In this document: one piece after another, positions 24,043-39,804 of the stretch
How positions within the stretch are numbered: the stretch's first letter is position 1
Layout of the letters: the number at the start of each line of letters is the position of its first letter
DNA from: Candidatus Woesearchaeota archaeon
GTDB taxonomy: Archaea; Nanobdellota; Nanobdellia; Woesearchaeales; CAZJJJ01
Assembly: GCA_046538795.1 (NCBI GenBank)
Contig: JBKHIF010000001.1
Location: 1-53,764 of the forward strand
Direction: 5' to 3'
DNA length: 53,764 nucleotides
Program-made: the position numbers and the translations under genes
The notes under the pieces: generated by a model
What the model was told of the DNA's origin: nothing
What the model saw: the letters and a program-made list of their open reading frames with translations, nothing else
The model's database searches: none

Positions 24043-26745
24043 TTATTCTAATGGAACAAAATTCGGATCAAGAGAAAACCTTACAAGATTTTCTGCAGAT
24101 TCATAATCTTCAGGATTGCTAAGGCTGTTTATTACCCGCCCTTCTCCTCTTTCCGCCAGTACACCAAAGCAATATTTTCCACCATCATTAACATATCTTC
24201 CAAGTATTATATTGATAGAAGTCTCTTCAACATTATCATAGCTTCTGTACCTCATCATATTTTTGCCTACACCTGAAACATCGCAGGCCCCCATCTCATC
24301 TCCTTCATATTCGTAATAAAGTATCGTATAGCTTTCTGGTTCATCCAACAAATCCAGCTCTTCTCCATTTTCATAGGTCTGAGGGGGCATCCATGATAAA
24401 GTATCTCCTGTAAATGCAACCATAGAAACAGGCCCGTATTCCAGATCGTCTTTTATGATGTTTGAATTAAGCTCTTCAATCGTTATCATCTCATCAAGAG
24501 AATTAGAAAGCTTATTTCCGTTGCTGTCAACACCAACAATACCTATGAGATATTCTGTATCTTTTTGCAAAGGAAGCGAATAGAGATATTTTCCTGAATT
24601 TTCAAAAGAGTATGCAAGATCATCTTCAAAAGTCATCCCTTCAAATCTTGTATTTTCTGGATTAACCGGATACATGCAAATCATGTTTTCATAATCAAAA
24701 TCACAGTCAAATGAATAAGGCATGGATAAAAGAGCATTTTCTTCTGCTGATGAAAATTGTATGGTGACTTTATTAACATAATCTGAATAATCCATCTCAG
24801 TTGTACTCATCTCATTAAGATATTTAAGATTACCATCATCCAGCGTATTTCTCATAAGTTCTTCGACCATATCAACATCCTGATAATATATATCATAATG
24901 ATCAATATCTTCTGCAGGACTCTTGTCAAACATTATTATTGCAGAATCAGAATCCTTAGGCTTGTCGTAGAACCGTACTCCGGTTATCTTAGGCGGAGGA
25001 TCATCCCTGAAATAAAGAGCAAACTTATATTTTACAGGTTCATAAGCTGCCATATATTCTTCTCTTCCAAAAAGATATTCTGTAGAGAATAGTTCCTGAG
25101 AACTTTCTACGCAGAACCTATGAAAAAGCCTTTGTGATGAGCATTGGAGATCAGTCCTATCAACAACAGGATTGTTTTCTGAATCAGCTGGAGCAAAGCA
25201 CAGCGTCCCTGAATCAATCTTATAAAGCTTGTTCAAGAGAGGTCTTCGTCCAAACTGAGGGATCGATATTTCTCCATTAGAATTTCTGAGTATTATCTCA
25301 TCTGCATCAGTTACATATTCATCTTCTGCTCCGAAAAATTCTGCAAACCCACCCCTATTCCTGAAATAACACAGGTTAAGATTTCCTGAAGGATTAACGA
25401 TTTCTTTAGAAAATATATTTCCATCTCGTTCATATCTTAGGCGGATCATATCATTTCCAAACTTAGTGCCTTTCTCAAGAATAATCTCAGAATCTTCAGG
25501 AAGATTGTCTAAAGAAAGCCTGCAAAAACAAGATTCGCTCTGTTTGTCTGAATCAAGGCACAGCATGAAATCCTCGTAAAGCGTTTCAAGATATTCCTCA
25601 TCACTATTACATGAACCATAGTTCCATCTGTAATTGTAATCTGTATGTGGTTCGTCATCTGGATGTGCAGAAGGTATTTCATAAGAGCCAAATTCTTCGA
25701 TCATATCATCTATGCATATGTCAAGGTCTGGTTTTCCTGAACATTCCTCAACAAGGGCTTCTGCATCTTGTATTATTTGTTCATATTCGCTCAAGTCATA
25801 ATCAAGATATACTGAAAATGAAGGATTTATCTTATAAAGGCCAAACTGGCTTACGATGTCAGAGTATGAAGGTGATTCTCCTAGAATCTTTTTCGCCCAG
25901 AAAGAATAGAAAAGCTCAGATTTCTCAAGTATGGATTTCATATCTTCATATATATCAACATTCATTATGCCTTCCTGATGGATAAGCTTTCTTGAATACT
26001 CATCAAGATGAGATTCCCCATTGTTTAAGATCCGTTCCATATTTATGCTCCTTCTTTTAGGAAGATCATAAAGAATCTTGTCAGAAGTATCTTTGTCAGA
26101 AAAAAAAGCCGTGGTTATAAGGTAAAGATTTCCGTGATACTCTGAATAAAGACTCATCACATATCTTGCAGCAACCTCTATATTCTTTTCAGGATCAAAC
26201 CGGTCATCATATTCATCTGATTCAGGTTCTGGAGAACATCCCGGCTCAAAAGAACAGTCACCCTCTCTTTTTCCATTGGGAGAACAGCAAGAAACAATCT
26301 TTCCGAAAACATCACCAAATCTTTCTCTTTGGGAAATCTCCTCACTTAAGGGTATTATTCCTGCCCGTCCTATGTGTGAGATATAATCTTCATTGCCTTC
26401 TGAAGAAACAGATATAAATGTCTTTAGAAGATATATACATTCAGAACGCTCGTCAGGAGACGTGACAGCATCTGAACAAGAAGATGCTATAAGAGGACTG
26501 TATCTTTCTATCTCCTGCCTGGTTTCAACGCTCAGACCAAGGTCTTCCATTGTAGGTATCTCACTTACAGCATGCCCTGTAAGAAGGCTTCTTGAAAATC
26601 TATCAAGGTTCATATTTGAAAAAAGAGAAAATTCTCCTGCAACCATGAAAAAAAGGACAAGAGTAACTAAAAGATTAAAAGCAAAAACAATCTTTCCTGC
26701 TTTATTCCTTTTTTCCTCTTCTTTATTTATCCTTTTTAATCTCAT
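24043..26745 (-). CDS. Pilin-signal-anchored 900-aa surface protein with an SLT (GH23)-like lytic transglycosylase segment
   Basis: N-terminus MRLKRINKEEEKRNKAG-KIVFAFNLLVTLVLFFMV. Residues ~95-215 read VSSEGNEDYISHIGRAGIIPL ... DPEKNIEVAARYVMSLYSEYHGNLYLITTAFF, which resembles the SLT pattern ES..(S)..GA.GLMQ ... N...G..YL..L...Y.G. The rest is unrecognised. Confidence 0.6.
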   Translation of the reverse strand: MRLKRINKEEEKRNKAGKIVFAFNLLVTLVLFFMVAGEFSLFSNMNLDRFSRSLLTGHAVSEIPTMEDLGLSVETRQEIERYSPLIASSCSDAVTSPDERSECIYLLKTFISVSSEGNEDYISHIGRAGIIPLSEEISQRERFGDVFGKIVSCCSPNGKREGDCSFEPGCSPEPESDEYDDRFDPEKNIEVAARYVMSLYSEYHGNLYLITTAFFSDKDTSDKILYDLPKRRSINMERILNNGESHLDEYSRKLIHQEGIMNVDIYEDMKSILEKSELFYSFWAKKILGESPSYSDIVSQFGLYKINPSFSVYLDYDLSEYEQIIQDAEALVEECSGKPDLDICIDDMIEEFGSYEIPSAHPDDEPHTDYNYRWNYGSCNSDEEYLETLYEDFMLCLDSDKQSESCFCRLSLDNLPEDSEIILEKGTKFGNDMIRLRYERDGNIFSKEIVNPSGNLNLCYFRNRGGFAEFFGAEDEYVTDADEIILRNSNGEISIPQFGRRPLLNKLYKIDSGTLCFAPADSENNPVVDRTDLQCSSQRLFHRFCVESSQELFSTEYLFGREEYMAAYEPVKYKFALYFRDDPPPKITGVRFYDKPKDSDSAIIMFDKSPAEDIDHYDIYYQDVDMVEELMRNTLDDGNLKYLNEMSTTEMDYSDYVNKVTIQFSSAEENALLSMPYSFDCDFDYENMICMYPVNPENTRFEGMTFEDDLAYSFENSGKYLYSLPLQKDTEYLIGIVGVDSNGNKLSNSLDEMITIEELNSNIIKDDLEYGPVSMVAFTGDTLSWMPPQTYENGEELDLLDEPESYTILYYEYEGDEMGACDVSGVGKNMMRYRSYDNVEETSINIILGRYVNDGGKYCFGVLAERGEGRVINSLSNPEDYESAENLVRFSLDPNFVPLE

Positions 26746-26757
26746 CTCAAAACATCT

Positions 26758-27819
26758 CTACTTTTTTAGCAACCTGAATATTTTTTGTATGTTTTCTCTC
26801 GTATATCCCAGCTGCATCATATAACCGGATATCTGGTCTTTTGTATATCCTTGTCTGAAAAGCCCATCAACGTATCTGATCACAGGATCATCAAATATCT
26901 TCCTGCTTTGTTTTGAAAACATATAGCTTCCGCTTACAAAAAGCAGAGCAACTGAAAGTATGAACAAAAATATAAGCGCAAAATCAGAATAATCAGGACC
27001 ATAATCAACCTCTTCATAATGATAGGAACGCTTATAAGCAATTTTTTCTGCATCCTCTTTATTTTCAGGATTATCCCTTTCTTCTGCTTCTTCAAGAAGG
27101 ATCGCATCATTATCATTTTCTTCAGACACACATCTGCCTATGCAGCATTTTGTTCCAAAATCATCTGAGTATATATTTTCACCATCACATTCCTGATATA
27201 TAGTGCAGGGTTTTCCTCCCAAAGAATTGCATGAAATAAGATCATCTTCTTCTAAAAGAGAAATGCAGTCTTCATCACACCCACAATCAATATCTTTTTC
27301 CTCGCAATCAGGATCACATATCCCATCATCCTCTAGATCGCAATAATTATCACTTTCACCAGAATCACAGTCATCGCATGATGCAAAACTTTCTGAAAGA
27401 CTGCACCCAGAATCACTGCATGGCTCGCATATTCCGTCATTATCGCACAAATTTATCAACCTATAATCGCCAGAAAAACCATAACCTGTCCTGAAGTAAT
27501 AGATATCTGAAGAACTCTCATCGACATGAAATACCACTCTTCCTGAATCATCAATCTTTTCCGAGGAAATTAGCTCTTTTGAATCATCATAAAGAAGAAC
27601 AGGAATCCCTGTATTCAAAGAGTCTCCTTTGTAAAACTCCCGACTATAAAATTCATTCCAGCTAAAAGCATAATATTTCTCAACGTTCATATCAGAATCA
27701 AATTCAATGAATATATCAAGAGCAGAAGAAAAAGGAATAACCAACATCACAAGAGCAAGAGCTATTAAATAAAAACGGTTTTTATTTCTTTTAAATATTA
27801 AAAAAATTTTGTCTCTCAT
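26758..27819 (-). CDS. Cys/Asp-rich secreted protein with a C-terminal TM anchor and a small basic cytoplasmic domain
   Basis: N-terminal signal/anchor (YLIALALVMLVIPFSSA), a Cys/Asp cluster (CDNDGICEPCSDSGC...CDLEDDGICDPDCEEKDIDCGCDEDC), then the TM FALIFLFILSVALLFVSGSYMF and a ~55-aa tail. Confidence 0.7.
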   Translation of the reverse strand: MRDKIFLIFKRNKNRFYLIALALVMLVIPFSSALDIFIEFDSDMNVEKYYAFSWNEFYSREFYKGDSLNTGIPVLLYDDSKELISSEKIDDSGRVVFHVDESSSDIYYFRTGYGFSGDYRLINLCDNDGICEPCSDSGCSLSESFASCDDCDSGESDNYCDLEDDGICDPDCEEKDIDCGCDEDCISLLEEDDLISCNSLGGKPCTIYQECDGENIYSDDFGTKCCIGRCVSEENDNDAILLEEAEERDNPENKEDAEKIAYKRSYHYEEVDYGPDYSDFALIFLFILSVALLFVSGSYMFSKQSRKIFDDPVIRYVDGLFRQGYTKDQISGYMMQLGYTRENIQKIFRLLKK

Positions 27820-27844: not shown

Positions 27845-29806
27845 CTAACCTATTTCAAGGATATTTTCAATAGCAGATTCATAATATTCTCTCGAGCTAA
27901 GATCTTCTATGTCTGAATTATCTATAGCATTCTTAGAAAAAATTATCTCTGGAGTGAATCGCCTGAATTCAGCATCATAATAAAATTCCAGAGGATCAAC
28001 TGCTTTTTTCACAGGACCCACAACCCAGTCATAGCACCTGCTTCCCATAATTTTCTCATTATCTGAACCATCCTTGTGAATTTCAAAATAAAATGCCCCT
28101 ATATCTGTTCCTGGAAAAACACCAGCCTCAGCAATCCTTCTTCCAGAAAGAATTATTTCTCCTGGTTCGACAAATATATTTTCTGCAAAATAATATCTTG
28201 ATACAAATCCATTATTATGATCTATCTCTATGATATTTGCCTGAGCATATTTTTCATCTATTTCAGCGCCCTCATATGTCAGTGATTCTTCTCCTGCACG
28301 AATGACCCTTCCTCCGGAAACTGCATATATATTATCCCCCACATCTGAACCAAGCATCAAACCTGGAAAAAATTCAAGATCATTTCCTGAATTCCCGCAC
28401 CTTGTCATGCCAAAAAGATTTATTACATTAAGATGAGATTGTTTCATTGAATCCAGAGGATAATATGATACCCAGTTATTATTTTCATTCTCAAGAAGAA
28501 CGCCTTTGTAAGGATCAAAGTCCGGATCAAACACTCTTCCTTTTATCTTAATGATAATTCCTCCTCTCTTCTGCCAGGCAGGTTCAAGAAGATCTCTTGA
28601 AAGAATTATATTATTTCCCACATCATTTGATGCCCCCTTTGTATAAGGATCATTTGCGATAACATAATTTTCTCCTGCATAAAGAATCACCAGATAATGT
28701 CCTCCTGTACAGTATGTCCTGTCAAGAACATCAATATCTTCTTCACACAAGCCAGCAAGCTCCTGATTTTGCAAAAGCAACACAGGACCCTGAGAAACTG
28801 CATATATCAAATCATCCCATGCCACATCATGGCTAACTTCTGCAACAAGATTTTTGCTTTCTGCAAATTTCTGCAATGTATCAGGATCATATCCATCTTT
28901 AGAGAAACAAGTGCCGTCCCCATTCTTGTTAAAAAAAAACCAGTTATCAGCAGGCACTCCGTAATATTCTAAAACCATGTTCATCGCTGTAGGTCCGCAG
29001 CCAGAAGAGCATAATGTTCCTACTTCATCTGTATCGCATGAAACCTCATATTCCTTTACATCAGAATCACCGCATTGATTAATAAAAGGCACAAGAGGCA
29101 CACCGTTCATCAAGGCATCTTCAGGACATGGGCCTCTGCAACATGAACCACTGCATTCATATCCATCCTGATCACGCACTTCATCTGCAATTAAATTACA
29201 GTAATTGCAAAGATTGCTTGTTTTTCCGCTCATGCCCGCTCCTTTGTTCCTTCCAATATCATATTCCATATCAGAATCAGTTGTTCCTATGACCTTGAGC
29301 TTATCTCCTGTATCTATGACAGAATAATCAAACCTTGCAGGCATATCCCTGTTGTATGCAATCGAATATTTGTAAATGATTGAATTAATCTGCGCCCTGA
29401 AATTATCGTCAAAATTATCTAATGGGTCGCAGGTCTTTTCCTGATCTTTTAAGATGTTGTAATCAAGATATTTTCCGCAAGGGGAATCATCTGCAAAGCC
29501 GCTTTTTTCTGCAAGGGAAAGAAAAGATTGCGCTGCTGAATATTTCACAGACTGATCAAGATAAAAAAGATCCTGTTCAGCCCTGTTTGAAGTAAGGATA
29601 AGATTAATCTGCTTTTCTCCTATATAAAGCGCAGGATCTATTGTTGATTTTTCTCTTTCGCTCCATTGCTTGAACATTGAGTAAGACATAAGTCCTGCAA
29701 TAAGCGAAAAAAGCATGAAAAGAGACAATGTCATGAGCATATTATCTCCTTTTTTATTTCCAAACATTCTCTTTTTTGTTTCAAACATCTTATACATTTT
29801 AATCAT
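27845..29806 (-). CDS. Pilin-signal protein with a papain-like (Peptidase_C39_2-type) domain and a degenerate M23/LytM-like domain
   Basis: N-terminus ..MFGNKKG-DNMLMTLSLFMLFSLIAGLM. C39-like motifs are CGPTAMNMVLEYYG, TGGHYLVILYAG and IANDP. An M23-like beta-core (IIEIDHNNGFVSRYYFAENIFVEPGEII) lacks the expected HxxxD and HxH metal ligands (FPGLML and FYFEIH instead). Confidence 0.65.
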   Translation of the reverse strand: MIKMYKMFETKKRMFGNKKGDNMLMTLSLFMLFSLIAGLMSYSMFKQWSEREKSTIDPALYIGEKQINLILTSNRAEQDLFYLDQSVKYSAAQSFLSLAEKSGFADDSPCGKYLDYNILKDQEKTCDPLDNFDDNFRAQINSIIYKYSIAYNRDMPARFDYSVIDTGDKLKVIGTTDSDMEYDIGRNKGAGMSGKTSNLCNYCNLIADEVRDQDGYECSGSCCRGPCPEDALMNGVPLVPFINQCGDSDVKEYEVSCDTDEVGTLCSSGCGPTAMNMVLEYYGVPADNWFFFNKNGDGTCFSKDGYDPDTLQKFAESKNLVAEVSHDVAWDDLIYAVSQGPVLLLQNQELAGLCEEDIDVLDRTYCTGGHYLVILYAGENYVIANDPYTKGASNDVGNNIILSRDLLEPAWQKRGGIIIKIKGRVFDPDFDPYKGVLLENENNNWVSYYPLDSMKQSHLNVINLFGMTRCGNSGNDLEFFPGLMLGSDVGDNIYAVSGGRVIRAGEESLTYEGAEIDEKYAQANIIEIDHNNGFVSRYYFAENIFVEPGEIILSGRRIAEAGVFPGTDIGAFYFEIHKDGSDNEKIMGSRCYDWVVGPVKKAVDPLEFYYDAEFRRFTPEIIFSKNAIDNSDIEDLSSREYYESAIENILEIG

Positions 29807-29841
29807 TTATCATGTTAATTTTTTATCATATTAAGATCGTA

Positions 29842-30456
29842 TTATTCTGACGCCATGTCAACCCCATAAAGTTGTATGATAAATGTTTTTTCATGTGGTG
29901 ATGGTATTATCTGGCTTGCAAGAATCCCTGATGAACGCCTCTTCGCTTTCCTAAGATCATTTTCATCAAAAGGAGATATATAGACAATATTGCTGTCATC
30001 ATCAATCCTTATGTCTGCTGCAGTTCCTGAAAGTATGGCAAGAGAAATATCTCTTCCACGCACCGCAGTCACCTTGATATACCATGATTTCTGTCCATAA
30101 GACAATGATTCGTCAAAATAATCTACTGTCTTTCGTATAAATTCATCATAATATTCTGGCCTCTCATAAGATGGATTTTCGACCCCGCGTATATTCTTTC
30201 CTATAAGATAAAAATTTGACATAGCGATATAATCCGCATAGTTCATGTCATCTTTGAATCTGCTCCTGAGATAATTCAGCAAGAACAATTCCTTATCTAT
30301 TCTATCAAGCTTTGAATCAACATTTATATCTGCCTGAACAGTCTTTATCTTCTGCACCACAAAAGCAGCCAGAAATATTACAAGCATTATTACAACAACC
30401 CCCACAAAAATCCAAATTTCTGCAAGTCCTGCTTTTTTTGACCTTGAATATCTCAT
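29842..30456 (-). CDS. Pilin-like (class III signal) protein, 204 aa
   Basis: MRYSRSKKAG-LAEIWIFVGVVVIMLVIFLAAFVV. The ATG overlaps the upstream stop (ATGA). Confidence 0.7.
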   Translation of the reverse strand: MRYSRSKKAGLAEIWIFVGVVVIMLVIFLAAFVVQKIKTVQADINVDSKLDRIDKELFLLNYLRSRFKDDMNYADYIAMSNFYLIGKNIRGVENPSYERPEYYDEFIRKTVDYFDESLSYGQKSWYIKVTAVRGRDISLAILSGTAADIRIDDDSNIVYISPFDENDLRKAKRRSSGILASQIIPSPHEKTFIIQLYGVDMASE

Positions 30457-31004
30457 TTTGCCTCAAAATAACCTTCTGTCGTATCTAAATTTACTGTTAC
30501 TGATTTTACCTCGATAATAAATTTTCCTTCTGCAGGTGATGATGGATCATCATCAATCAAAAGTACCTTTATCACTGGCCTCTGATTTATTTCCTGAGAG
30601 CTCTTATTCCAGTTTGAAGTTGAAAGTTCTATCCTTTGATCAAGAGTTTCTGAAACAAGCGATATCCTGAATGCATAATTAACAGAATCCAGCCTGAAAC
30701 ATTCATCAAGGTTTTGTTGGTTAAATTTATCAAGATCTATTATTCCTGGATATGCCCTGTTAACCTCATCACGATATACGAAACACGAAGGAGAAGATAT
30801 AAGCCTCTGCGAAAGTATGCTTTCCTCTACATCTTCATTCATCTTATATTTTTCACCAGTATCTACAGATACAAGAACTACAAACATGGCTGCTGTTATG
30901 CTTAAAGATAAAAAAAGAAATATTATGTGCATAGTGTCTTCTGCAATAGTTCCTTTTTTATTACTAAATACAGACTTCCTGAAAATTAGACTAATTCCGC
31001 TCAC
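30453..31004 (-). CDS. Pilin-like (class III signal) protein, 183 aa
   Basis: ..FSNKKG-TIAEDTMHIIFLFLSLSITAAMFVVLV. The only start that retains the signal is GTG at 31004. It overlaps the upstream gene by 14 nt. Confidence 0.65.
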   Translation of the reverse strand: MSGISLIFRKSVFSNKKGTIAEDTMHIIFLFLSLSITAAMFVVLVSVDTGEKYKMNEDVEESILSQRLISSPSCFVYRDEVNRAYPGIIDLDKFNQQNLDECFRLDSVNYAFRISLVSETLDQRIELSTSNWNKSSQEINQRPVIKVLLIDDDPSSPAEGKFIIEVKSVTVNLDTTEGYFEAK

Positions 31005-32001
31005 CTGATTCTCCCATCACTGCTTTGTATATTTTTTCTGCAACTTCACCGTACCTGAAATAAAGATTGTCAGAATATTGTGAATTTATATTTCCTAATT
31101 CAAGAACAATAACATTCGTCCCATAAGACATCGGATAAAGTTCGCTTTCTTCAGATATCCTTGATCGGTCCACAAATTTAAGCGCAGATTTGGTTACATA
31201 ATCCAGTTCACCTGCACTTTCTGCAATGTTGCATGCAAGATTACGAGTTTCATCGCCTCCTGAATAAACATAAACCTCATTTGACATAAAATCGTTTTGT
31301 GAACCAAAACGAAGCACAATAGTAAGATCATAATTCTCTGCAAGATTCCTGTAGTCTGATTCAAAGATAGTTGAACCATCAATCATCCTTGCATTTATTT
31401 CATCTCTTGAAAAAAGACCAAACAAATATTCAGATATTTCTTCTGTATATGATTTTTCTGACACAGATATTGCATTTTCCTCAGGATCTGCTATGACTGC
31501 ATCCTTGTTATCAGAAGACACAAGCAAAATATTTTCCAGGACAACATTATGTCTTGAGCATGAAGGTGTGTTCTTGAAATCTTCCTGGCCTTCGCTGTAA
31601 TATATCTTTCCTGACTGTTTTGTTATGAATATCGTATCAAGTTCAGAAAAAAATGCATCTATATCTTCTCTGTCCTGGCCATAGGCATATCTAACTTCAG
31701 TATCCTCTTCTGGATCAACAATGACCCAGCCAGATCCAATATTGATAAAATAATTCCCTACATCTTCCTTATATGTCATTATAGCGTTTCCCGGAACAGA
31801 ATAAAGAGCATCATTGATTAATGCAAGTTCTCTTGCAACATACATTTTCTGGAATATTTCGCCTGTTGCATATTCCTTTCCCACGCTTATGAAAAGAAAA
31901 GATATAAGGACACCAAGCAGGAAAGAAGCTATGGTAAGTATTACCATCCTGGGACCTGAAAGAGCGCTTGCTCTTTTTTGTTTAAGAAAATAAACACACA
32001 T
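30991..32001 (-). CDS. N-terminally anchored (pilin-like) protein, 336 aa
   Basis: MCVYFLKQKRAS-ALSGPRMVILTIASFLLGVLISFLF. ATG start. Confidence 0.65.
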   Translation of the reverse strand: MCVYFLKQKRASALSGPRMVILTIASFLLGVLISFLFISVGKEYATGEIFQKMYVARELALINDALYSVPGNAIMTYKEDVGNYFINIGSGWVIVDPEEDTEVRYAYGQDREDIDAFFSELDTIFITKQSGKIYYSEGQEDFKNTPSCSRHNVVLENILLVSSDNKDAVIADPEENAISVSEKSYTEEISEYLFGLFSRDEINARMIDGSTIFESDYRNLAENYDLTIVLRFGSQNDFMSNEVYVYSGGDETRNLACNIAESAGELDYVTKSALKFVDRSRISEESELYPMSYGTNVIVLELGNINSQYSDNLYFRYGEVAEKIYKAVMGESGERN

Positions 32002-32087
32002 AGAGTATTTTTAGAGAAACGTGTTTATAAAATTAATGCCTTTGAAAAAAATAATCATCTAAAATATCCTGTAATTGTAGCAAAATA

Positions 32088-32870
32088 CTAATCTTCTTCA
32101 TCAGGGGATAAGACGATATTTTCATCTTCATCCCAGTACATATCCTGAAAATTCCTGCACGCGTCATAATCAGGACAGATAAACACTTCATTGCCATGCT
32201 TGTATATCGAAACTGAAAATGCACCACCTGAATTTCCATTGGTTATTCCTGAATCAATAACAACTCCTTTCTGCTGTTCATCGTCAATAGTAAATATATT
32301 GACTGGAGGATTAGTAATATTAATCTCATCTTGGAGCTGGCTGCATTCTCTTACTGAATATTTTGATCTGCAGTTCCTGTTCCCGCCTTCAATAAGCCTT
32401 GAAAGAGGAAACCCTCTTGTCTCTGTTACAAGAAAATTTTTAAGTTCGCATGATATCTTGTTGAACTTTTTTTCTCTTTCATCATAATCTCTCATGAGGC
32501 ATGCGCATGTCTTTGTCATGTCTAAATTGCAGTTTTCCGGCCTTTCAAAAGTTATCAAATGGTTGCCTTCATTTCTGAAAAATCTAAGTTCAAGAATGTC
32601 TGTCCCTGAATTGAAAAAAACAAGCGCACTTTTGTCCACAAGAATAATTGAACCTGAATCCAATTGATCTTGGGATAAAGAATCAAGTTTTGAAAGAAGA
32701 CTGTTATAGCTGCTTATGCTTTTTTGATCAGTTTGATAACCAACATATTTGAATACTCCAAAAACTATTGAAATAAATACAACTACTGAAAGTATAAAAA
32801 CCACAAGATTTTCAAGAACCAAAATAGTTCCTTTTTTCGATTTATTGAAAGTGCTTAATCCATACTCCAT
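32088..32870 (-). CDS. Pilin-like (class III signal) protein, ~260 aa
   Basis: MEYGLSTFNKSKKG-TILVLENLVVFILSVVVFISIVF. ATG at 32870 is preferred over the TTG at 32888. Confidence 0.7.
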   Translation of the reverse strand: MEYGLSTFNKSKKGTILVLENLVVFILSVVVFISIVFGVFKYVGYQTDQKSISSYNSLLSKLDSLSQDQLDSGSIILVDKSALVFFNSGTDILELRFFRNEGNHLITFERPENCNLDMTKTCACLMRDYDEREKKFNKISCELKNFLVTETRGFPLSRLIEGGNRNCRSKYSVRECSQLQDEINITNPPVNIFTIDDEQQKGVVIDSGITNGNSGGAFSVSIYKHGNEVFICPDYDACRNFQDMYWDEDENIVLSPDEED

Positions 32871-33124
32871 TTGCCTGCACCAGGACAATCAGGATTGTCA
32901 ACCTGTTGTTCTTTAGGAGGATTTGGGCCCTTGCAGGGATCTATAAGATCAACCACATTATCCCCATCCTTGTCTTTTGCATTGTTTATACTGTTTTGAA
33001 ATTCATCTGTTCCGTCCCCCATTCCACGAATAAAAATTACAAGAAGAACAGTCATTACAATCAAAAGTAATGCTGCTGAAACGATTATCGGCATTGTCAT
33101 CTCAAATCCTTTTTTTGATTTCAT
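32855..33124 (-). CDS. Small pilin-like protein (~89 aa) with a TSP3-like Ca-binding loop
   Basis: MKSKKG-FEMTMPIIVSAALLLIVMTVLLVIF. GGTGAT lies 5 nt upstream of ATG 33124. The C-terminal part DKDGDNVVDLIDPC resembles a thrombospondin type-3 repeat. Confidence 0.75.
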   Translation of the reverse strand: MKSKKGFEMTMPIIVSAALLLIVMTVLLVIFIRGMGDGTDEFQNSINNAKDKDGDNVVDLIDPCKGPNPPKEQQVDNPDCPGAGKWSMD

Positions 33125-33143
33125 GAATATCACCATCTAAATT

Positions 33144-34934
33144 TTAATTCAATATGCTTGTAAAAAAACTTTTCTGATTTTCTGAACATAATCTGTTCTC
33201 AAGATATGGACCAAGTTCTGAAAATTCAATGCCCGGCCATAATTGCGGCACAGGAGAAACTGAATAACTGTCAGATTCTTTGCGTATAACATAAAGAGAT
33301 TTCCCCTGAAGACTTCCTTCAAAATAATCCTCAAACCATGCAACATTATTTCCTCCCCCTGCCTTATTTGCCGGAGAAACTTTATTCTGCATTGCAAATG
33401 TTCTTTTCTCTATATGATGGCATCCTTCAACAGTAAATGCAAAACTAAATTCATCTTCCCAGGGAAGAGCAATCCTAAAACGATTCTCAAGAGCAAAATA
33501 ATCTTTCATCTCATTGCCCTTTGCATATATCAGATTATTTCCTGAAGGAAGCATTGTGTTGAATCCGACATTATCACAGCCAGAACCATCATTATTGATA
33601 TAGATGTGTTCGTTTCCTGTTTCGATTACCGGAAGAGAATCATGAACAAAAATACACCACTCACCATTTTCTAAAGAATTTACTTTATGATCTGCACCAA
33701 AATTATCAATAAATTCAAGGCTTGTTAAGCTTTGTACATTTTCAATAAACTGCTTTATTTCATCTTTCAGAGTATAACATGTTCCATCATCTAAATTCCA
33801 GACACATTCAAACCCAGCATCAGAGAATGTGCCATTAAGCCTTTGACAAGTATCTTCAGAAAGGGCATCTTCACAGGAATTCTGATCAAGCTCGATCATA
33901 TAGCAGCCTTCTTCCTCATCCCATGCGCAGATCTCTTTGCTGGTTTCTATAAAACCACAATAGTTCTCATTTAGAACTGCCTTGCAGATATTGTCATATA
34001 TTCCTGAAGACATTCTGATAAATGGAGATATATCCAATCCCTCCATATCAACAAGTCCTGAATCATCGCAAAGATCAAACTCTTCTCTCGATATAGTATC
34101 CCTGAATAGGTTCAGATCTGCATTATCGATGTCAAACGATGAAAGTCCTGCTTCATATATCACTGAAATATCTTGGGAAAAATCAAGATCATCGATTATT
34201 TTGTCTGTTACAAAAAAATTAATATCTCCCTGAGAATCATAGTATATTGGTATCCAGGGAATCATATATCGATTTCTCGATGCAAACATGCCAGATATTC
34301 TCATAAGAAAATAATCCTCTCCGTCAATCCTTATGTTATATGTCGGTTTTCCTGAAAAATAGGAGGCATAATGAATGTTAGAAACATCTACTCTTGAAGG
34401 GGTCAAGAAGAAATTTTTTGTGTCAGAATCAATGTCTGAAGCAAGATCATACATATATCTTCCATCATTTTTTGACCCTGGTCTGAAAAGATTAAATTTT
34501 CTTGAAAATGATTCGACCTGAGGATTCTGCGATCCAATGATTGTAATAATTGTTCTTCTACTGTTCTTTGTTATCTCATAAGAATATTCACTGTCAGAAA
34601 AATCAGGAATAAAAGCTATGCAATTTCTGTAATTATTTTCATTTTCAAAAACATCAAACAATATGCTCTTTGCCTCATCGAAATCCAATCCCGGATCGGA
34701 GTCATCCTGAAGAGCCTCTTCATATTCTCGATCCACAAGATGACGCTCTTTCATCGCATCCTGGAAATCTTTATCTGCTTTTTCATTAAAAGATACAATA
34801 AGCTCATTCAAAGCTCCTGATCCAAAAACCATAATTACAATAACAACTGTAAACACAAGTATAGCAGCAATTACAGGGGTGAGTACATAGGAAACACCTT
34901 TCTTATTATATATACTATTATCCATGATTTTCAT
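33144..34934 (-). CDS. Large pilin-like protein (~596 aa)
   Basis: MKIMDNSIYNKKG-VSYVLTPVIAAILVFTVVIVIMVF, which resembles the archaeal pilin N-terminal motif (G-VSPVIATVLL). It has a Cys-rich central region. The track start at 34946 is TTG, so ATG 34934 is used. Confidence 0.75.
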   Translation of the reverse strand: MKIMDNSIYNKKGVSYVLTPVIAAILVFTVVIVIMVFGSGALNELIVSFNEKADKDFQDAMKERHLVDREYEEALQDDSDPGLDFDEAKSILFDVFENENNYRNCIAFIPDFSDSEYSYEITKNSRRTIITIIGSQNPQVESFSRKFNLFRPGSKNDGRYMYDLASDIDSDTKNFFLTPSRVDVSNIHYASYFSGKPTYNIRIDGEDYFLMRISGMFASRNRYMIPWIPIYYDSQGDINFFVTDKIIDDLDFSQDISVIYEAGLSSFDIDNADLNLFRDTISREEFDLCDDSGLVDMEGLDISPFIRMSSGIYDNICKAVLNENYCGFIETSKEICAWDEEEGCYMIELDQNSCEDALSEDTCQRLNGTFSDAGFECVWNLDDGTCYTLKDEIKQFIENVQSLTSLEFIDNFGADHKVNSLENGEWCIFVHDSLPVIETGNEHIYINNDGSGCDNVGFNTMLPSGNNLIYAKGNEMKDYFALENRFRIALPWEDEFSFAFTVEGCHHIEKRTFAMQNKVSPANKAGGGNNVAWFEDYFEGSLQGKSLYVIRKESDSYSVSPVPQLWPGIEFSELGPYLENRLCSENQKSFFTSILN

Positions 34935-34939
34935 CTCAA

Positions 34940-35095
34940 TTACCAAATCCTGAAAAATGCTTTGACTTTATCAAAAAGGCTTGTTCCAAAAATAGACAAT
35001 ATTATTATTCCTATGGTTAAAGCAAAAAGTATCAATATTATCTTTCCGAGATTCTCCATGATAAAATTTCCTTTTTTGGATTTTATTGTTTTCAT
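34940..35095 (-). CDS. Mini pilin-like protein, 51 aa (not in the ORF track)
   Basis: Hand-translated: MKTIKSKKGNFIMENLGKIILILFALTIGIIILSIFGTSLFDKVKAFFRIW. It has the same KSKKG-hydrophobic N-terminus as its neighbours and fills the gap between 34934 and 35106. Confidence 0.6.
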   Translation of the reverse strand: MKTIKSKKGNFIMENLGKIILILFALTIGIIILSIFGTSLFDKVKAFFRIW

Positions 35096-35105
35096 CTTTA
35101 CCATT

Positions 35106-36194
35106 TCAACCTTTCATACGTATTACTTCACATTCGTTTTCAATATCTTCAAGCTTCCCAATCATTATAAGAGACGACTTTGGATCTTCAGGATCAAACT
35201 CAAAATCCTTCAAAGCATCTTCATTCATGCCGTATGGATTATACTGGTTATAAAGATTAGCGCTTGACTCGCTTAATGGTTCAGGTATCCTTATTGCAAT
35301 CGCATATTGTGTTCCGCTATTAAAACCCTGATTTCCCACATTCTGGACAAGAAGGAGACCATCTTCATATCCATGTTCAGCTACATATTCAAAATATGTA
35401 TACGACTTATCTTTTTTAACACAGCACACATCATCTTTATCGCAAGTAAATTCAAAAGAACTTGTGTATTTTCTAAGGCCGTCAGGGCAATTATCTCCCT
35501 TGGATATGCATTCCCCCCCATTCATCTCACAGTTGTTTCGTCTTACATAATCCAACCCTGAAGAGCAATCTGGATCTTCTGAATCGATATATCCGTCATC
35601 GTCATCATCTATACCATTATTGCAGTAAGACTCCCTTAATTCAGGCTCAACCATATAAAGATTCTCGTACAGAAAAAGCTGAAGTGAAGAATGATCAAAT
35701 ATAGTATCGCCAGATCTTTTATAACCTGGCTGGCCGTAATTGCTCTCCTCGATTGATTTAGCTATGCCCGCATCATCTATGGTGAATATATAGCAGACAT
35801 GGCATTCATCTCCCCAATAATCTTTAAGCGTATCTTCATACAATCCCTCGCCAAACATATACCAGCACTTGACAGCATAATCACCTATGTTTCCCATTAT
35901 GCCTTCTATACTCATTTCATGAAGATCATCAGGTATTTCTCGTTCATAGCTGAAGCACTGAAGAGGGACTATCTTTTGTTCTCCTATAAGTCCGCCCGGC
36001 TTGCCGGGATCAATAGTATATTCATCTCTTGCAAAGACACTTACCCTGCATATTTCCTCCTGGCCTTTTTCCTGGACATTATCAGTAGTAAATATGGCAA
36101 ACCCTGACAAGACAAACATACTGCCAAGTATGAGAATTATAGTTACAAGTTTCTTAAGCGTCATATCTCCTTTCTTATTAGGGAAGCATAGCAT
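35106..36194 (-). CDS. Pilin-like protein (362 aa) with a MopE-like Asp-rich motif and a C-terminal CExxGGxC Cys module
   Basis: MLCFPNKKG-DMTLKKLVTIILILGSMFVLSGF. Motifs YCNNGIDDDDDGYIDSEDPDC and NCEMNGGECISKGDNCPDG...CDKDDVCC. Confidence 0.7.
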   Translation of the reverse strand: MLCFPNKKGDMTLKKLVTIILILGSMFVLSGFAIFTTDNVQEKGQEEICRVSVFARDEYTIDPGKPGGLIGEQKIVPLQCFSYEREIPDDLHEMSIEGIMGNIGDYAVKCWYMFGEGLYEDTLKDYWGDECHVCYIFTIDDAGIAKSIEESNYGQPGYKRSGDTIFDHSSLQLFLYENLYMVEPELRESYCNNGIDDDDDGYIDSEDPDCSSGLDYVRRNNCEMNGGECISKGDNCPDGLRKYTSSFEFTCDKDDVCCVKKDKSYTYFEYVAEHGYEDGLLLVQNVGNQGFNSGTQYAIAIRIPEPLSESSANLYNQYNPYGMNEDALKDFEFDPEDPKSSLIMIGKLEDIENECEVIRMKG

Positions 36195-36291
36195 TTTTTA
36201 TCTTGATATAAAGAACTGCAAAGGCAACACCGACTGTTATAAGTGTTAATATCAGTATAGCTATAAACTTAATATCTGCCTTCTTGTTCAT
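36178..36291 (-). CDS. Mini pilin-like / single-TM peptide, 37 aa (not in the ORF track)
   Basis: Hand-translated: MNKKADIKFIAILILTLITVGVAFAVLYIKIKNAMLP. Its N-terminus MNKKAD matches the neighbour's MNNKKAD. It overlaps the start of 35106..36194 by 17 nt in another frame. Confidence 0.45.
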   Translation of the reverse strand: MNKKADIKFIAILILTLITVGVAFAVLYIKIKNAMLP

Positions 36292-36355
36292 GAGAAATTA
36301 TATAAGAAGTTGGGTATATAAAGTTTTTGAAAGAAAAAGATAAGAAAAACAAGAT

Positions 36356-36634
36356 TTAGCCGTCGCTTTCTTGGTTATCATCTTTATTCAGATTTATGCA
36401 GCAAACAGGTGTTGCATCACTGCATTCTGCGTTTATCTTGACAGAGGGCCAATCACAGGTTGCTTCACTCTGGCATGTTCCGCCTCTTGCTTCACAGCTA
36501 TCCTGCTCATTACTGAAGTTGAGCATCTTCTGTCCAAATATCGCAATAAGTATGATCATGACAAGAAGAGCAACAGCTGCAACAACAATTATATTTATGC
36601 TCATGCCCTGTGCTTTCTTATCTTTCATATTCAT
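36356..36634 (-). CDS. Small Cys-rich pilin-like protein (~92 aa), paralog of 36639..36935
   Basis: MNMKDKKAQG-MSINIIVVAAVALLVMIILIAIF, then SCEARGGTCQSEATC...C..VCC. The start is trimmed to ATG 36634, 4 nt after the upstream stop. Confidence 0.75.
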   Translation of the reverse strand: MNMKDKKAQGMSINIIVVAAVALLVMIILIAIFGQKMLNFSNEQDSCEARGGTCQSEATCDWPSVKINAECSDATPVCCINLNKDDNQESDG

Positions 36635-36638
36635 CAAC

Positions 36639-36935
36639 CTAGACAATGATGCAGCACTGCTCGTCATCATTAGGTTCGCCATTCATCCTGTAACAGACCA
36701 GATCATTTCGTCTCCTTCCTGTTGAAGATGGGCCATTTTCACTCTTTGCAATTGCATCGCACGAACCTCTTCCCAGATCAAAGCACTGCCCTCCTGCAGA
36801 TTCACAGGATTTTGCTTGAATATTAAATATGTTAAGCCTCCCCATAAAAATCAATGAGACTGTAACAAGAACAAGCAATGCAAGCGCTGCAATAATGATA
36901 AAATTCATGCTTAAATCAGCTTTCTTATTATTCAT
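36639..36935 (-). CDS. Small Cys-rich pilin-like protein (~98 aa); major-pilin candidate
   Basis: MNNKKAD-LSMNFIIIAALALLVLVTVSLIF, then SCESAGGQCFDLGRGSC...QCC. GAGGTG lies 7 nt upstream of ATG 36935. The track start at 36944 is GTG. Confidence 0.75.
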   Translation of the reverse strand: MNNKKADLSMNFIIIAALALLVLVTVSLIFMGRLNIFNIQAKSCESAGGQCFDLGRGSCDAIAKSENGPSSTGRRRNDLVCYRMNGEPNDDEQCCIIV

Positions 36936-36984
36936 GAAAGACACCTCTTGATGATGATTATCAAGTAGATAATTATCTTACTCC

Positions 36985-36993
36985 TATATAAAA
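36985..36993 (-). promoter_or_regulatory. TATA-box-like element in the only sizeable intergenic gap of the pilin array
   Basis: The minus strand reads TTTTATATA, ~50 nt upstream of ATG 36935, within the 119-nt gap 36936-37054. Confidence 0.35.
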
Positions 36994-37054
36994 TTTTTCA
37001 TATGGCAAGCGTAGTAAAAACAGTTTTTGATAAATGTTCTGACGTTGTGTGCTA

Positions 37055-37606
37055 TCAGTTGCATATCCAGGTCTCTATCACAAGAGTATTAGGATACAAA
37101 GGAAGAGGATGCCTATCCACCTTTCTTTCCTGCATAGGACACAAATCATCTACTGACTGCTGATCTGATGATGCAAACATCAAATCAGGTATCATATCTC
37201 CGTTTACAGACATGTTTATGAAATATTTTCTGTTCCAGACGCGAAGAGTATCTTCAAGTATCAGGTTTATGGTTTGGGAAGCGTACAAGCAGGAACTTTC
37301 GCCATTTTCACAATTTATCCTTGGATCATCAGGGTTTTTTGCGCAATCGACCAATAGATCTCCTATGTCAAGGTCATTGCAGTCTCTGGTCCTTGTGTTT
37401 ATTATTGCATTTATAGTATTACTTGCAAGCTCTGATTTCTGATAGCTCTGCCTTATTTCAGTTGGCCTGTTGTCAAGTTCTGATTTTATTACAAGAACCA
37501 ATGCGACAGATATAAGCATGACTATAAAAAGAAGTCCAAATACTTCTGCCTGAGCCTTTCTGCTTTTCTCTTCTTTTTTAAGCTGTTTGGTATTTTTTTT
37601 CGCCAT
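37055..37606 (-). CDS. Pilin-like (class III signal) protein, 183 aa
   Basis: ..KKEEKSRKAQ-AEVFGLLFIVMLISVALVLV, with 6 Cys in the mature part. Confidence 0.7.
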   Translation of the reverse strand: MAKKNTKQLKKEEKSRKAQAEVFGLLFIVMLISVALVLVIKSELDNRPTEIRQSYQKSELASNTINAIINTRTRDCNDLDIGDLLVDCAKNPDDPRINCENGESSCLYASQTINLILEDTLRVWNRKYFINMSVNGDMIPDLMFASSDQQSVDDLCPMQERKVDRHPLPLYPNTLVIETWICN

Positions 37607-37624
37607 GTTGAATATCTGAATATC

Positions 37625-38155
37625 TCACACTATACTTTTTCCAGGTTCATAATATAGGACTTCCATGTATCCAAAATAATAAGCCTTTTCTCTTGAATCA
37701 TATACAGATAATGGGAGCTGGATTGCGATTTGCGAAGTCTCTTCAAGCTCATTTTCATATAAAATCCAGGATCTTTGGTTTGGATATACTTCAGTAATAG
37801 TAATCATGCTATACCTGAAATAAGGATAATAATATTCCTGATTTTGTCTTAATATATCTTCAGCAGCTTCAACTTTCAGGAAATCAACGCAATTTTCTTT
37901 TTTTACATTATTGAAGCTGCATGCAACCTCAGGCAGGGTTGAAAAAATCTGGGCAAGCTGGACAGTCTCCCTGCTTGTCTGTTCTGACTGTATGTTCTGT
38001 ACATTGCCTTTTTGCCATCTCACATAAAAAACAAGACCAAATATAAGAAGGATAAGAAATATAAAAAGCACCATTATGGTCTCGCCCATCTTGATGTCCT
38101 GTGCTTTTTTACTGATGTTGAATATTTTATAATGATCTTTTTTCATCCATATCAT
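37625..38155 (-). CDS. Pilin-like (class III signal) protein, 176 aa
   Basis: ..FNISKKAQ-DIKMGETIMVLFIFLILLIFGLVF. Confidence 0.7.
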   Translation of the reverse strand: MIWMKKDHYKIFNISKKAQDIKMGETIMVLFIFLILLIFGLVFYVRWQKGNVQNIQSEQTSRETVQLAQIFSTLPEVACSFNNVKKENCVDFLKVEAAEDILRQNQEYYYPYFRYSMITITEVYPNQRSWILYENELEETSQIAIQLPLSVYDSREKAYYFGYMEVLYYEPGKSIV

Positions 38156-38159
38156 CTTC

Positions 38160-39260
38160 TCAATAGATTACATCACAGCTTTTTATCTGTGCTTCCTGGT
38201 TCTGATCTTTTAAGCTTTCTGCATAGCTTATCATGTTTGCATATTCATCCATATAATCTCCTGAATTCATGATTTCATAAGAAGATTCATTTATATCCCT
38301 GAATATGTTTCGTGCAGCACTATATACGCTTGAACACGCAGGATCATGCTCTATTGTACGATAATATACCTGCATATCTATTATTTTTTCCCAAAATACA
38401 TTGTTTATGTAATTAAGCCTCCTGAAAGCCTTTCTCATATTGCAGTCATAATACTCTTTTGTATCTGAAAATACTGCCCCGAAAAGCGATGCAGAACCCA
38501 GGTAATATGATTCAGCAAAAGCATTTGATCCAGAATCTATTATTTCCGCTTCATAAAATCTCAACTCTCCGTTTTCATAAGGCGCATCAGAAAAAAAGGG
38601 AATGATCGAAATCGCTGATACCTTATTTCCCTTATCAAGAAACTCCTCTCTCAAAAAAGCAAGATCATTTGCTTGAACACCCATGCTAAGATAAATGACC
38701 CGTGTATTCATGTCATTCAAATTATAGATATCTCCAATATCAGTATAATAATCAGCAGTAAAATGATTTGGAATAGTATCATTGATATATTCCTTCAAAA
38801 CCACTGACCCAGCATTACCTTCATCATACAAGAAAATATAACGTGATTGTGTTGACGAGATAAATAGAAAATTCATGATGCTGTACGGAAGATTCCAGTT
38901 ATATGACCAGGTGACAAGATTCTGACCTTTAAGTTCCATAGGAGCAAAAGTAACATCTGACGATATCTGTGTTGTAAGTCCTGACACCTCATAGACAGAA
39001 TATCCTGAATCTTCACATATAAAATTAATTTCTATGTCAGAAGTCCTTATGAGTGAAGAAGTGCCTGAACCCAGCCTTGCTCCTTCAAATATAGATGCAA
39101 GGTTTTCTTTCACTCTTGCATTTATCGCAACAGTTGCAGAAGATTTTTGCCTTACTGCCATCATTGTAAAAAAACCAAGTATCACAGCACCGGCTACAAG
39201 AATGAATATCCAATTAAACTGCACAGTTATCTGAGCTTTTTTTCTTGATTCAAAGATCAT
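38160..39260 (-). CDS. Pilin-like (class III signal) protein, 366 aa
   Basis: MIFESRKKAQ-ITVQFNWIFILVAGAVILGFFTMMAV. Confidence 0.7.
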   Translation of the reverse strand: MIFESRKKAQITVQFNWIFILVAGAVILGFFTMMAVRQKSSATVAINARVKENLASIFEGARLGSGTSSLIRTSDIEINFICEDSGYSVYEVSGLTTQISSDVTFAPMELKGQNLVTWSYNWNLPYSIMNFLFISSTQSRYIFLYDEGNAGSVVLKEYINDTIPNHFTADYYTDIGDIYNLNDMNTRVIYLSMGVQANDLAFLREEFLDKGNKVSAISIIPFFSDAPYENGELRFYEAEIIDSGSNAFAESYYLGSASLFGAVFSDTKEYYDCNMRKAFRRLNYINNVFWEKIIDMQVYYRTIEHDPACSSVYSAARNIFRDINESSYEIMNSGDYMDEYANMISYAESLKDQNQEAQIKSCDVIY

Positions 39261-39279
39261 GGTAAAATCACACGATTAA

Positions 39280-39804
39280 TCAGGAAAAGCTTATGATTGC
39301 CTTGTTGCCTCTTCCTTCAGCCCAAAATACAACCCTCGAGCGCTTCTCATCAATACACACATATCCACCCTCAATCTCAATCTTATCTACATGAAAAGAT
39401 GCACCTGCATATCTGTCAACAAGAAATACATTTCTTCCTTCAGGACCCATCCACCCCTGTGAATCTTTCCAGTAATTATAGATCACAGGATATTTGCTTT
39501 TAAAAGAAGTATCAGATATCTCATCAGGATGTTTTCCAAGATCTATTATGCATAACTTGTCAAAATTTCCCGGCATCAAAAGGTTTATCTCTTTTCTTGA
39601 TCTGTATTCCTGGGTTATAGCATCAATCTCATTTTGAAGAGTATTTTTAAATTTCACATAATTGATATCGTTTCCCTGTTTCATGACTCCGCCGATTATT
39701 TTTGAACCAAAAAAAACGACAAAACCGATCATAAATAAAGTCATCACCATCATAAGAACATGAGACTGCGGCTGTCCTTTCCTGTTTTTAAATAAAAGCA
39801 TCAT
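39280..39804 (-). CDS. Pilin-like (class III signal) protein, 174 aa
   Basis: MMLLFKNRKGQ-PQSHVLMMVMTLFMIGFVVFF. The ATG overlaps the TGA stop of the 2063-aa gene (ATGA), implying translational coupling. Confidence 0.7.
   Translation of the reverse strand: MMLLFKNRKGQPQSHVLMMVMTLFMIGFVVFFGSKIIGGVMKQGNDINYVKFKNTLQNEIDAITQEYRSRKEINLLMPGNFDKLCIIDLGKHPDEISDTSFKSKYPVIYNYWKDSQGWMGPEGRNVFLVDRYAGASFHVDKIEIEGGYVCIDEKRSRVVFWAEGRGNKAIISFS

Follow-up and report, generated by a model that had tools for sequence, protein, structure and literature searches.

A lytic transglycosylase fold with serine in the catalytic glutamate column on a surface protein of a Woesearchaeote

Does an archaeal protein that carries the fold of a murein-cutting enzyme cut murein? 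The question is raised by a gene of 900 codons plus stop at 24043..26745 in a stretch of 53,764 nucleotides from a Candidatus Woesearchaeota archaeon (assembly GCA_046538795.1, contig JBKHIF010000001.1, positions 1 to 53,764); this whole stretch is called the window below, and all features given with coordinates lie on the minus strand. An initial annotation had recognized a segment resembling the SLT/GH23 lytic transglycosylases in the encoded protein, had ascribed to it a pilin-type signal, and had proposed a surface-tethered or filament-borne murein glycosidase directed at the wall of another organism. We found that the fold is genuine and that a serine, Ser114, occupies the position of the catalytic glutamate. 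In our overall reading, which we regard as reasonably probable, the protein descends from a wall-degrading ancestor that was split, and its SLT head persists as a non-catalytic binding module of an attachment apparatus.

Fold and homology of the SLT head

The open reading frame, its coordinates and the peptide quoted from it agree with the sequence. Pfam PF01464 matches the 900-aa protein significantly, slightly above the cut-off (E=4.2e-5; 23.5 bits, cut-off 21.3), in a partial match that is confined to residues 177-213 and corresponds to profile positions 57-93. When 1.84 billion representatives were searched exhaustively with HMMER, 162 relatives were obtained, about 48 of which share the N-terminal region, and a profile was built from a MAFFT alignment (A1) of 32 relatives. 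This profile matches MltC (1.3e-21), Slt70 (6.8e-15), MltE (1e-12) and also gp16 of phage T7, and the Pfam SLT domain is found individually in 30 of the 32 aligned sequences, at best with 3.5e-31. A phmmer search of PDB sequences with the full protein and with residues 68-289 returned nothing relevant, a word-index homologue search found nothing beyond the 900-aa protein itself, and NCBIfam contains no match for it.

Alignment, AlphaFold and fold search together delimit an all-helical SLT-fold domain with flanking helices at residues 60-300 (25846..26568), the core of which (residues 97-232; 26050..26457) is homologous to MltC, Slt70 and MltE. The AlphaFold (AF2) model of residues 60-300 reaches a pLDDT of 96.4 and a pTM of 0.92. 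When this model was compared with the PDB by Foldseek, the top 49 matches were all family-1 lytic transglycosylases (prob 0.85-1.00, mostly 1.0; TMq 0.38-0.51), and the predicted structure thus has the lysozyme-like fold. The SLT resemblance of the segment, now borne out by Pfam, the A1 profile, AlphaFold and Foldseek, is true homology to the family-1 lytic transglycosylases and not a chance similarity. A six-frame scan of the whole window with an HMM of the SLT core revealed no second SLT domain.

The setting of the gene is archaeal. The identical protein is present on four independent contigs, from two metagenome-assembled genomes at NCBI and two Logan assemblies, and NCBI, which already names it, gives Candidatus Woesearchaeota as its source. 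The locus is flanked by archaeal housekeeping genes, which encode an RPA-like OB-fold protein, a DUF362/ferredoxin protein, RadA, CDC48, GatD and GatE, and source name and flanking genes both support the occurrence of an SLT/GH23-fold segment in an archaeon. With its positively charged N-terminus, one transmembrane (TM) helix and 20 cysteines, the 900-aa protein is extracytoplasmic.

Serine in place of the catalytic glutamate

Motif I of the protein reads V113-S114-S115-E116-G117, and the codon of Ser114 (26404..26406) directly follows a helix formed by residues 97-113. In alignment A1 the stretch V-S-S-E-G stands, without gaps, opposite the W-E-S-x-G of the relatives that bear the glutamate and are called canonical here. 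BLASTP places S114 opposite E745 of the canonical relative P0006, and hhalign, applied to separately built profiles of 15 Glu-less and 17 canonical sequences, sets 'SvTS~G' against '~~ES~G'. Three independent alignments thus agree that Ser114 lies in the glutamate column. This column is the catalytic one, since MltC ('IESSFNP') and the E-to-Q mutant entry 4cfo ('TQSSFNP') align to it, and in the AF2 model helix 97-113 ends just before S114, the usual place of the catalytic Glu. The 'catalytic E-S' of the initial annotation was therefore mis-registered, and the catalytic position holds Ser114 instead of an acidic residue, an observation which that annotation had itself named as speaking against its proposal. 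We reject a frameshift at codon 114, and likewise an error in sequencing, because the same protein is present in four assemblies.

The other two sugar-contacting motifs are altered as well. In motif II, GLMQ has become G129-I-I-P-L, with proline at the Gln position throughout the Glu-less clade, and in motif III, AYNAG has become A-F-F-S-D, where the clade reads AY[FYLI][AGS]; both motifs are degenerate across the entire clade. From the loss of the Glu, the motif II Gln and the motif III Asn, we infer with the support of the structural model that the SLT head is most likely not a murein-cutting enzyme. We consider it very unlikely that it is nevertheless an active lytic transglycosylase which attacks the murein of bacteria, as hosts or prey, with E116 or another acidic residue as general acid. 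The firm SLT fold and homology, the fusion of close canonical relatives to Amidase_3, NlpC/P60, VanY and YkuD, and the location of an acidic residue, E116, only two positions past the catalytic column would all fit such an enzyme. Against it stand the Ser114 assignment in all three alignments and the additional loss of the motif II and motif III residues, and to our knowledge every characterized GH23 enzyme uses this catalytic Glu. E116 is unlikely to be a relocated catalytic residue because it is not conserved: the two orthologues, each 41% identical, have Leu or Lys there (P0003, 'SISMLRN'; P0002, 'TYAYKHN'), and the position is variable in the 'TS' clade described below.

In a neighbour-joining tree, 12 representatives without the Glu group as a single clade, which lies within a set of about 30 canonical, Glu-bearing relatives and has a Glu-bearing sequence as its sister; two further sequences have lost the Glu independently. 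The clade comprises the 900-aa protein, its two orthologues and nine sequences of the pattern V-T-S-x-G / GL[IV]P[LM] / AY[FY]xG (the 'TS' clade). A profile-profile comparison between Glu-less and canonical relatives gives a prob of 99.86 and an E of 5.5e-31. Between motif II and the DDRFDPEKNIE helix lies a Cys-rich insert, CCSPNGKREGDCSFEPGC (residues ~146-178; 26212..26310), which is common to the canonical DPANN relatives and missing from the 'TS' sub-clade, and a Y-x-F-W helix at the C-terminal side of residues 60-300 is found in the Glu-less clade only. How widely the clade is spread among taxa is judged from the NCBI source name of the identical protein and from the archaeal flanking genes of three relatives; a scan of GTDB genomes with patterns from alignment A3 matched 85 stretches, none of which was confirmed.

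Despite the loss of its motifs, the SLT domain does not appear to decay. Its core is 38-48% identical between orthologues, compared with 35-43% in the other domains that follow the N-terminal region, and is thus conserved as well as the rest of the protein, which indicates that it is maintained. These numbers bear on the possibility, which we hold to be rather unlikely, that the head is a structural relic: a ligand-less, folded spacer in a protein of surface-layer or sheath-like type whose function resides in the C-terminal modules. Those modules are an alpha/beta Cys-containing module (G-x-Y-x-I-N-P-S-F ... D-Y-D-L; residues ~301-410, 25516..25845) and a beta-sandwich region with FN3-like domains (residues ~411-900, 24046..25515), the latter assigned by AF2 and Foldseek. 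The AF2 model of residues 290-900, computed with 39 relatives, has a pLDDT of 82.3 and a pTM of 0.76, and the best PDB matches of the C-terminal region are tandem FN3 arrays (LAR, fibronectin, gp130; E~1e-8), while Pfam fn3 gives a sub-threshold match in one relative only, P0010. Most of the 162 relatives match residues 300-430 and 535-780 alone and have no SLT domain; at about 600 aa, they consist of the C-terminal modules, alpha/beta module included, behind an N-terminal helix, and they share the 'TM + ITG' N-terminus of the 900-aa protein. This distribution, together with the alteration of all three sugar-contacting motifs, is what a relic would predict. A head that is at least as conserved as the C-terminus speaks against it, as do Pro132 and a [DE]-C pair among the clade-specific residues, which are fixed across the 12 Glu-less representatives in a pattern more typical of a functional surface.

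A split gene beside a pilin-like cluster

The neighbourhood of the gene suggests where the Glu-less head came from. At 27845..29806, a 653-aa protein is encoded that combines a class-III-like signal and YIGExQ module with a Peptidase_C39_2-like domain and a degenerate M23/LytM domain. At the same RPA-RadA-linked position in the loci L007 and L008, there is a single protein of 1452 aa with a class-III-like signal, C39_2, NAGPA, a canonical SLT domain and the same C-terminal modules. The 653-aa protein aligns to residues 1-436 of this fused protein, P0006 (1e-22), and the 900-aa protein to its residues 692-1384 (4e-34). The two genes in the window thus match together one fused protein at the same locus in a relative, and they represent the split form of a multi-domain wall-hydrolase protein because they align to its N- and C-terminal parts. 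The gene order is kept in L005, where the orthologue is 41% identical, and, without the M23 domain, in L006, which belongs to the 'TS' clade. In both loci, as in the window, a further gene lies between the C39-like and the SLT-like gene; here (26758..27819) it encodes a membrane protein of 353 aa, acidic and Cys-rich, that starts with a signal or anchor and closes with a TM helix followed by a short tail; its acidic, Cys-rich middle part includes CDDCDSGESDNYCDLEDDGICDPDC.

In active enzymes the zinc-ligand motif of M23 contains H-x-H; in the M23 domain of the 653-aa neighbour it reads F-Y-F (AFYFEIHKDG). In both PDB and NCBIfam, this domain finds its best matches in EnvC, NlpD, ActS, DipM and SpoIIQ, which are degenerate LytM factors. 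With an SLT domain without Glu and a degenerate M23 domain, both 'murein hydrolase' annotations of the locus look catalytically dead. The C39_2-like domain keeps, as identified by eye, the Cys of 'GCGPTA' and the His of 'GGHYLV'; a PDB sequence search with this region was uninformative. The dead SLT head could, in principle, act as a regulatory or docking pseudoenzyme that binds and positions the C39-like cysteine peptidase of the neighbour and so replaces the covalent link of the fused relative, by analogy with degenerate LytM factors such as EnvC and NlpD. The correspondence of the two genes to the parts of P0006, their continued adjacency in L005 and L006, and the match of the neighbour's M23 domain to the degenerate activators EnvC, DipM and SpoIIQ would be in line with such a role, but the peptidase activity is itself putative, with a Cys and a His that were picked by eye, and we regard this possibility as improbable.

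Other relatives combine SLT with further wall-active domains: P0056 carries NlpC/P60, Amidase_3, YkuD, Polysacc_deac_1 and SLT, P0024 VanY and SLT, P0006 C39_2, NAGPA and SLT, and P0004 SLT and M23. The first three of these start with class-III-like signals and P0004 with an ordinary N-terminal hydrophobic signal. The four proteins are candidates for filament-borne wall-degrading 'toolkits'.

The N-terminus of the 900-aa protein is of another kind. Residues 1-37 (26635..26745) form a signal anchor, with basic MRLKRINKEEEKRNKAGK before a hydrophobic helix at ~19-37. The stretch K15-A16-G17-K18 before this helix looks similar to a class III site; class III signals, however, do not usually have Lys at +1/+2, and neither orthologue (P0002, P0003) has any [KR][GA] before the helix. 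The assumption of a pilin signal is therefore weak for this protein; it holds for the 13 genes upstream. Among 132 relatives with an N-terminal helix, we distinguish two classes. In 62 of them a motif [ILV]TG[x][AV] follows 5-30 residues past the helix; this class takes in the 900-aa protein (L-T-G-H-A, residues 55-59, 26569..26583, with L55-T56-G57 as its core), its orthologues and most short relatives. The other class, with 39 members, has the form 'KK[GA] + helix + YIGExQ...AEKALFYxDQSAK' and contains the canonical multi-hydrolase relatives and the 653-aa neighbour. The two classes are nearly exclusive, as only seven sequences carry both patterns under a lax definition. Membership in the TM + [ILV]TG class and not in the KK[GA] + TM + YIGExQ class leaves the filament-borne placement of the 900-aa protein that the initial annotation had suggested without support. 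We know of no description of the [ILV]-T-G-[x]-[AV] motif, which could serve as a signal-peptidase site or direct the sorting or processing of DPANN surface proteins in a way not yet recognized.

An uninterrupted run of 13 genes at 27845-39804, the 653-aa gene among them, encodes proteins in which [KR][KR][GA] directly precedes the hydrophobic helix at the N-terminus, as in class III or prepilin-like signals. None of the 13 has a significant match to a Pfam family, and the window encodes neither a pilus ATPase nor a platform protein or prepilin peptidase. Synteny of the cluster extends to L005, L006 and L007, where it always adjoins the RPA...RadA genes. Two small overlapping class-III-signal genes at 36356-36944 encode proteins of 101 and 108 aa with Cys-rich C-termini, which by their size are candidates for the major filament subunits. 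A 2063-aa protein (39801-45992) without a match in Pfam contains 198 Cys and many repeats of about 40 aa of the type 'E-T-D-V-D-C-G-G-x-C-x-x-C'; at its C-terminal end it has a TM helix and an extended tail of low complexity. The product of 35106-36194 has a comparable acidic double-disulfide repeat, with a sub-threshold match to NCBIfam NF033662 (31.9 bits, cut-off 41). Placed directly upstream of the pilin-like cluster, a giant surface protein of 2530 aa (46046-53638) combines CarboxypepD_reg, Big_13 and Y_Y_Y-like beta-sandwich domains. All long open reading frames between ~10 kb and the window end (10000-53764) lie on the minus strand, and the GC skew of this part is uniformly negative.

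A proposed shift from cutting to binding

The reading that we favour is as follows. The 900-aa protein is a surface protein of the Woesearchaeote, anchored via its one N-terminal helix, and its head (residues ~60-300) presents a family-1 lytic transglycosylase fold in which the catalytic glutamate has been lost to Ser114. An ancestral wall-degrading protein would have been split in this lineage, after which the non-catalytic SLT head was kept under constraint and would now bind a glycan ligand or a partner. The head would then not be a lysin; it would serve in a cell-surface apparatus for attachment that is encoded together with the neighbouring cluster of 13 pilin-like genes. Three points weigh against this reading. 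The tree in which the Glu-less sequences form a single clade carries no support values; some pseudoenzymes relocate their catalytic residues, and E116 is only two residues from the canonical position; and the loss of the motif II Gln and the motif III Asn may weaken glycan binding in addition to catalysis.

A more specific proposal is that the Glu-less head is a lysin-derived lectin, a specific receptor-binding module that recognizes the wall glycan of a host (murein of a bacterium or pseudomurein of a methanogen) but leaves it uncut, and that is displayed on a conserved Woesearchaeota attachment apparatus built from the 13 class-III-signal proteins. We consider this version doubtful. In sister lineages, the protein encoded at this locus bears a pilin-type signal and a whole set of wall hydrolase domains. 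If the lectin proposal were true, a switch of the locus between 'cut' and 'hold' would mark the shift between predatory and episymbiotic lifestyles.

SLT/GH23 proteins of Woesearchaeota and Pacearchaeota have been published before and have been read as wall-degrading or host-attachment factors (fam00969 in PMC8204110, 2021; Vigneron et al. 2022, PMC9723730; both cited also in PMC12352652), with Rinke 2013 and Castelle 2015 given as earlier sources in PMC8204110/PMC9723730. The idea that such proteins target the wall of another organism is already contained in both papers, where peptidoglycan degradation is concluded from the domain annotation; catalytic residues are not discussed in their relevant passages (PMC8204110, PMC9723730). 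By its features, the 900-aa protein resembles these published DPANN SLT proteins, as it comes from the same phylum-level host and bears an SLT/GH23-type domain on a large extracytoplasmic protein, and the canonical relatives P0006, P0024 and P0056 are evidently of the kind described there. It differs, together with its clade, by the absence of the catalytic Glu, the motif II Gln and the motif III Asn, and by a TM + ITG N-terminus where the canonical relatives have a class-III-like signal. What is new here is the Glu-less, split and TM+ITG-anchored version of the already known Woesearchaeota SLT proteins. Nothing specific on SLT pseudoenzymes without the Glu came up in our literature search, and a 2026 preprint on archaeal type-4 filaments (TFF) does not mention wall-hydrolase pilins.

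With the bacterial family-1 lytic transglycosylases (MltC, Slt70 and MltE of E. coli; Slt, MltF and MltD of P. aeruginosa), the SLT head shares the fold and profile-level homology, including the Ser past the catalytic position, the motif II Gly, the DDRFDPEKNIE helix and Y-x-G-N. It departs from them in the substitutions E to S114, GLMQ to GIIPL and AYNAG to AFFSD, and in its archaeal origin, Cys-rich insert and FN3-like tail. Since it lacks their defining feature, the catalytic Glu, the 900-aa protein does not belong among the active lytic transglycosylases. In concept it resembles the degenerate LytM factors EnvC, NlpD, DipM and SpoIIQ, which have a wall-hydrolase fold without catalytic residues and act by binding or activation. 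Their fold differs from that of the SLT head, and while the neighbour's M23 domain matches them directly, a comparable mode of action of the SLT head would be an analogy.

These findings bear on how the lifestyle of Woesearchaeota is interpreted. Published claims that these archaea prey on or lyse bacteria are based largely on SLT/GH23 annotations (PMC8204110, PMC9723730). Domain presence alone, however, overstates the lytic potential, because a whole annotated clade has no Glu at the catalytic position and the M23 domain of the neighbour is degenerate. The conserved locus adjoining RPA-RadA, which occurs in 'armed' and 'disarmed' forms, provides a marker for comparing lifestyles across DPANN genomes.

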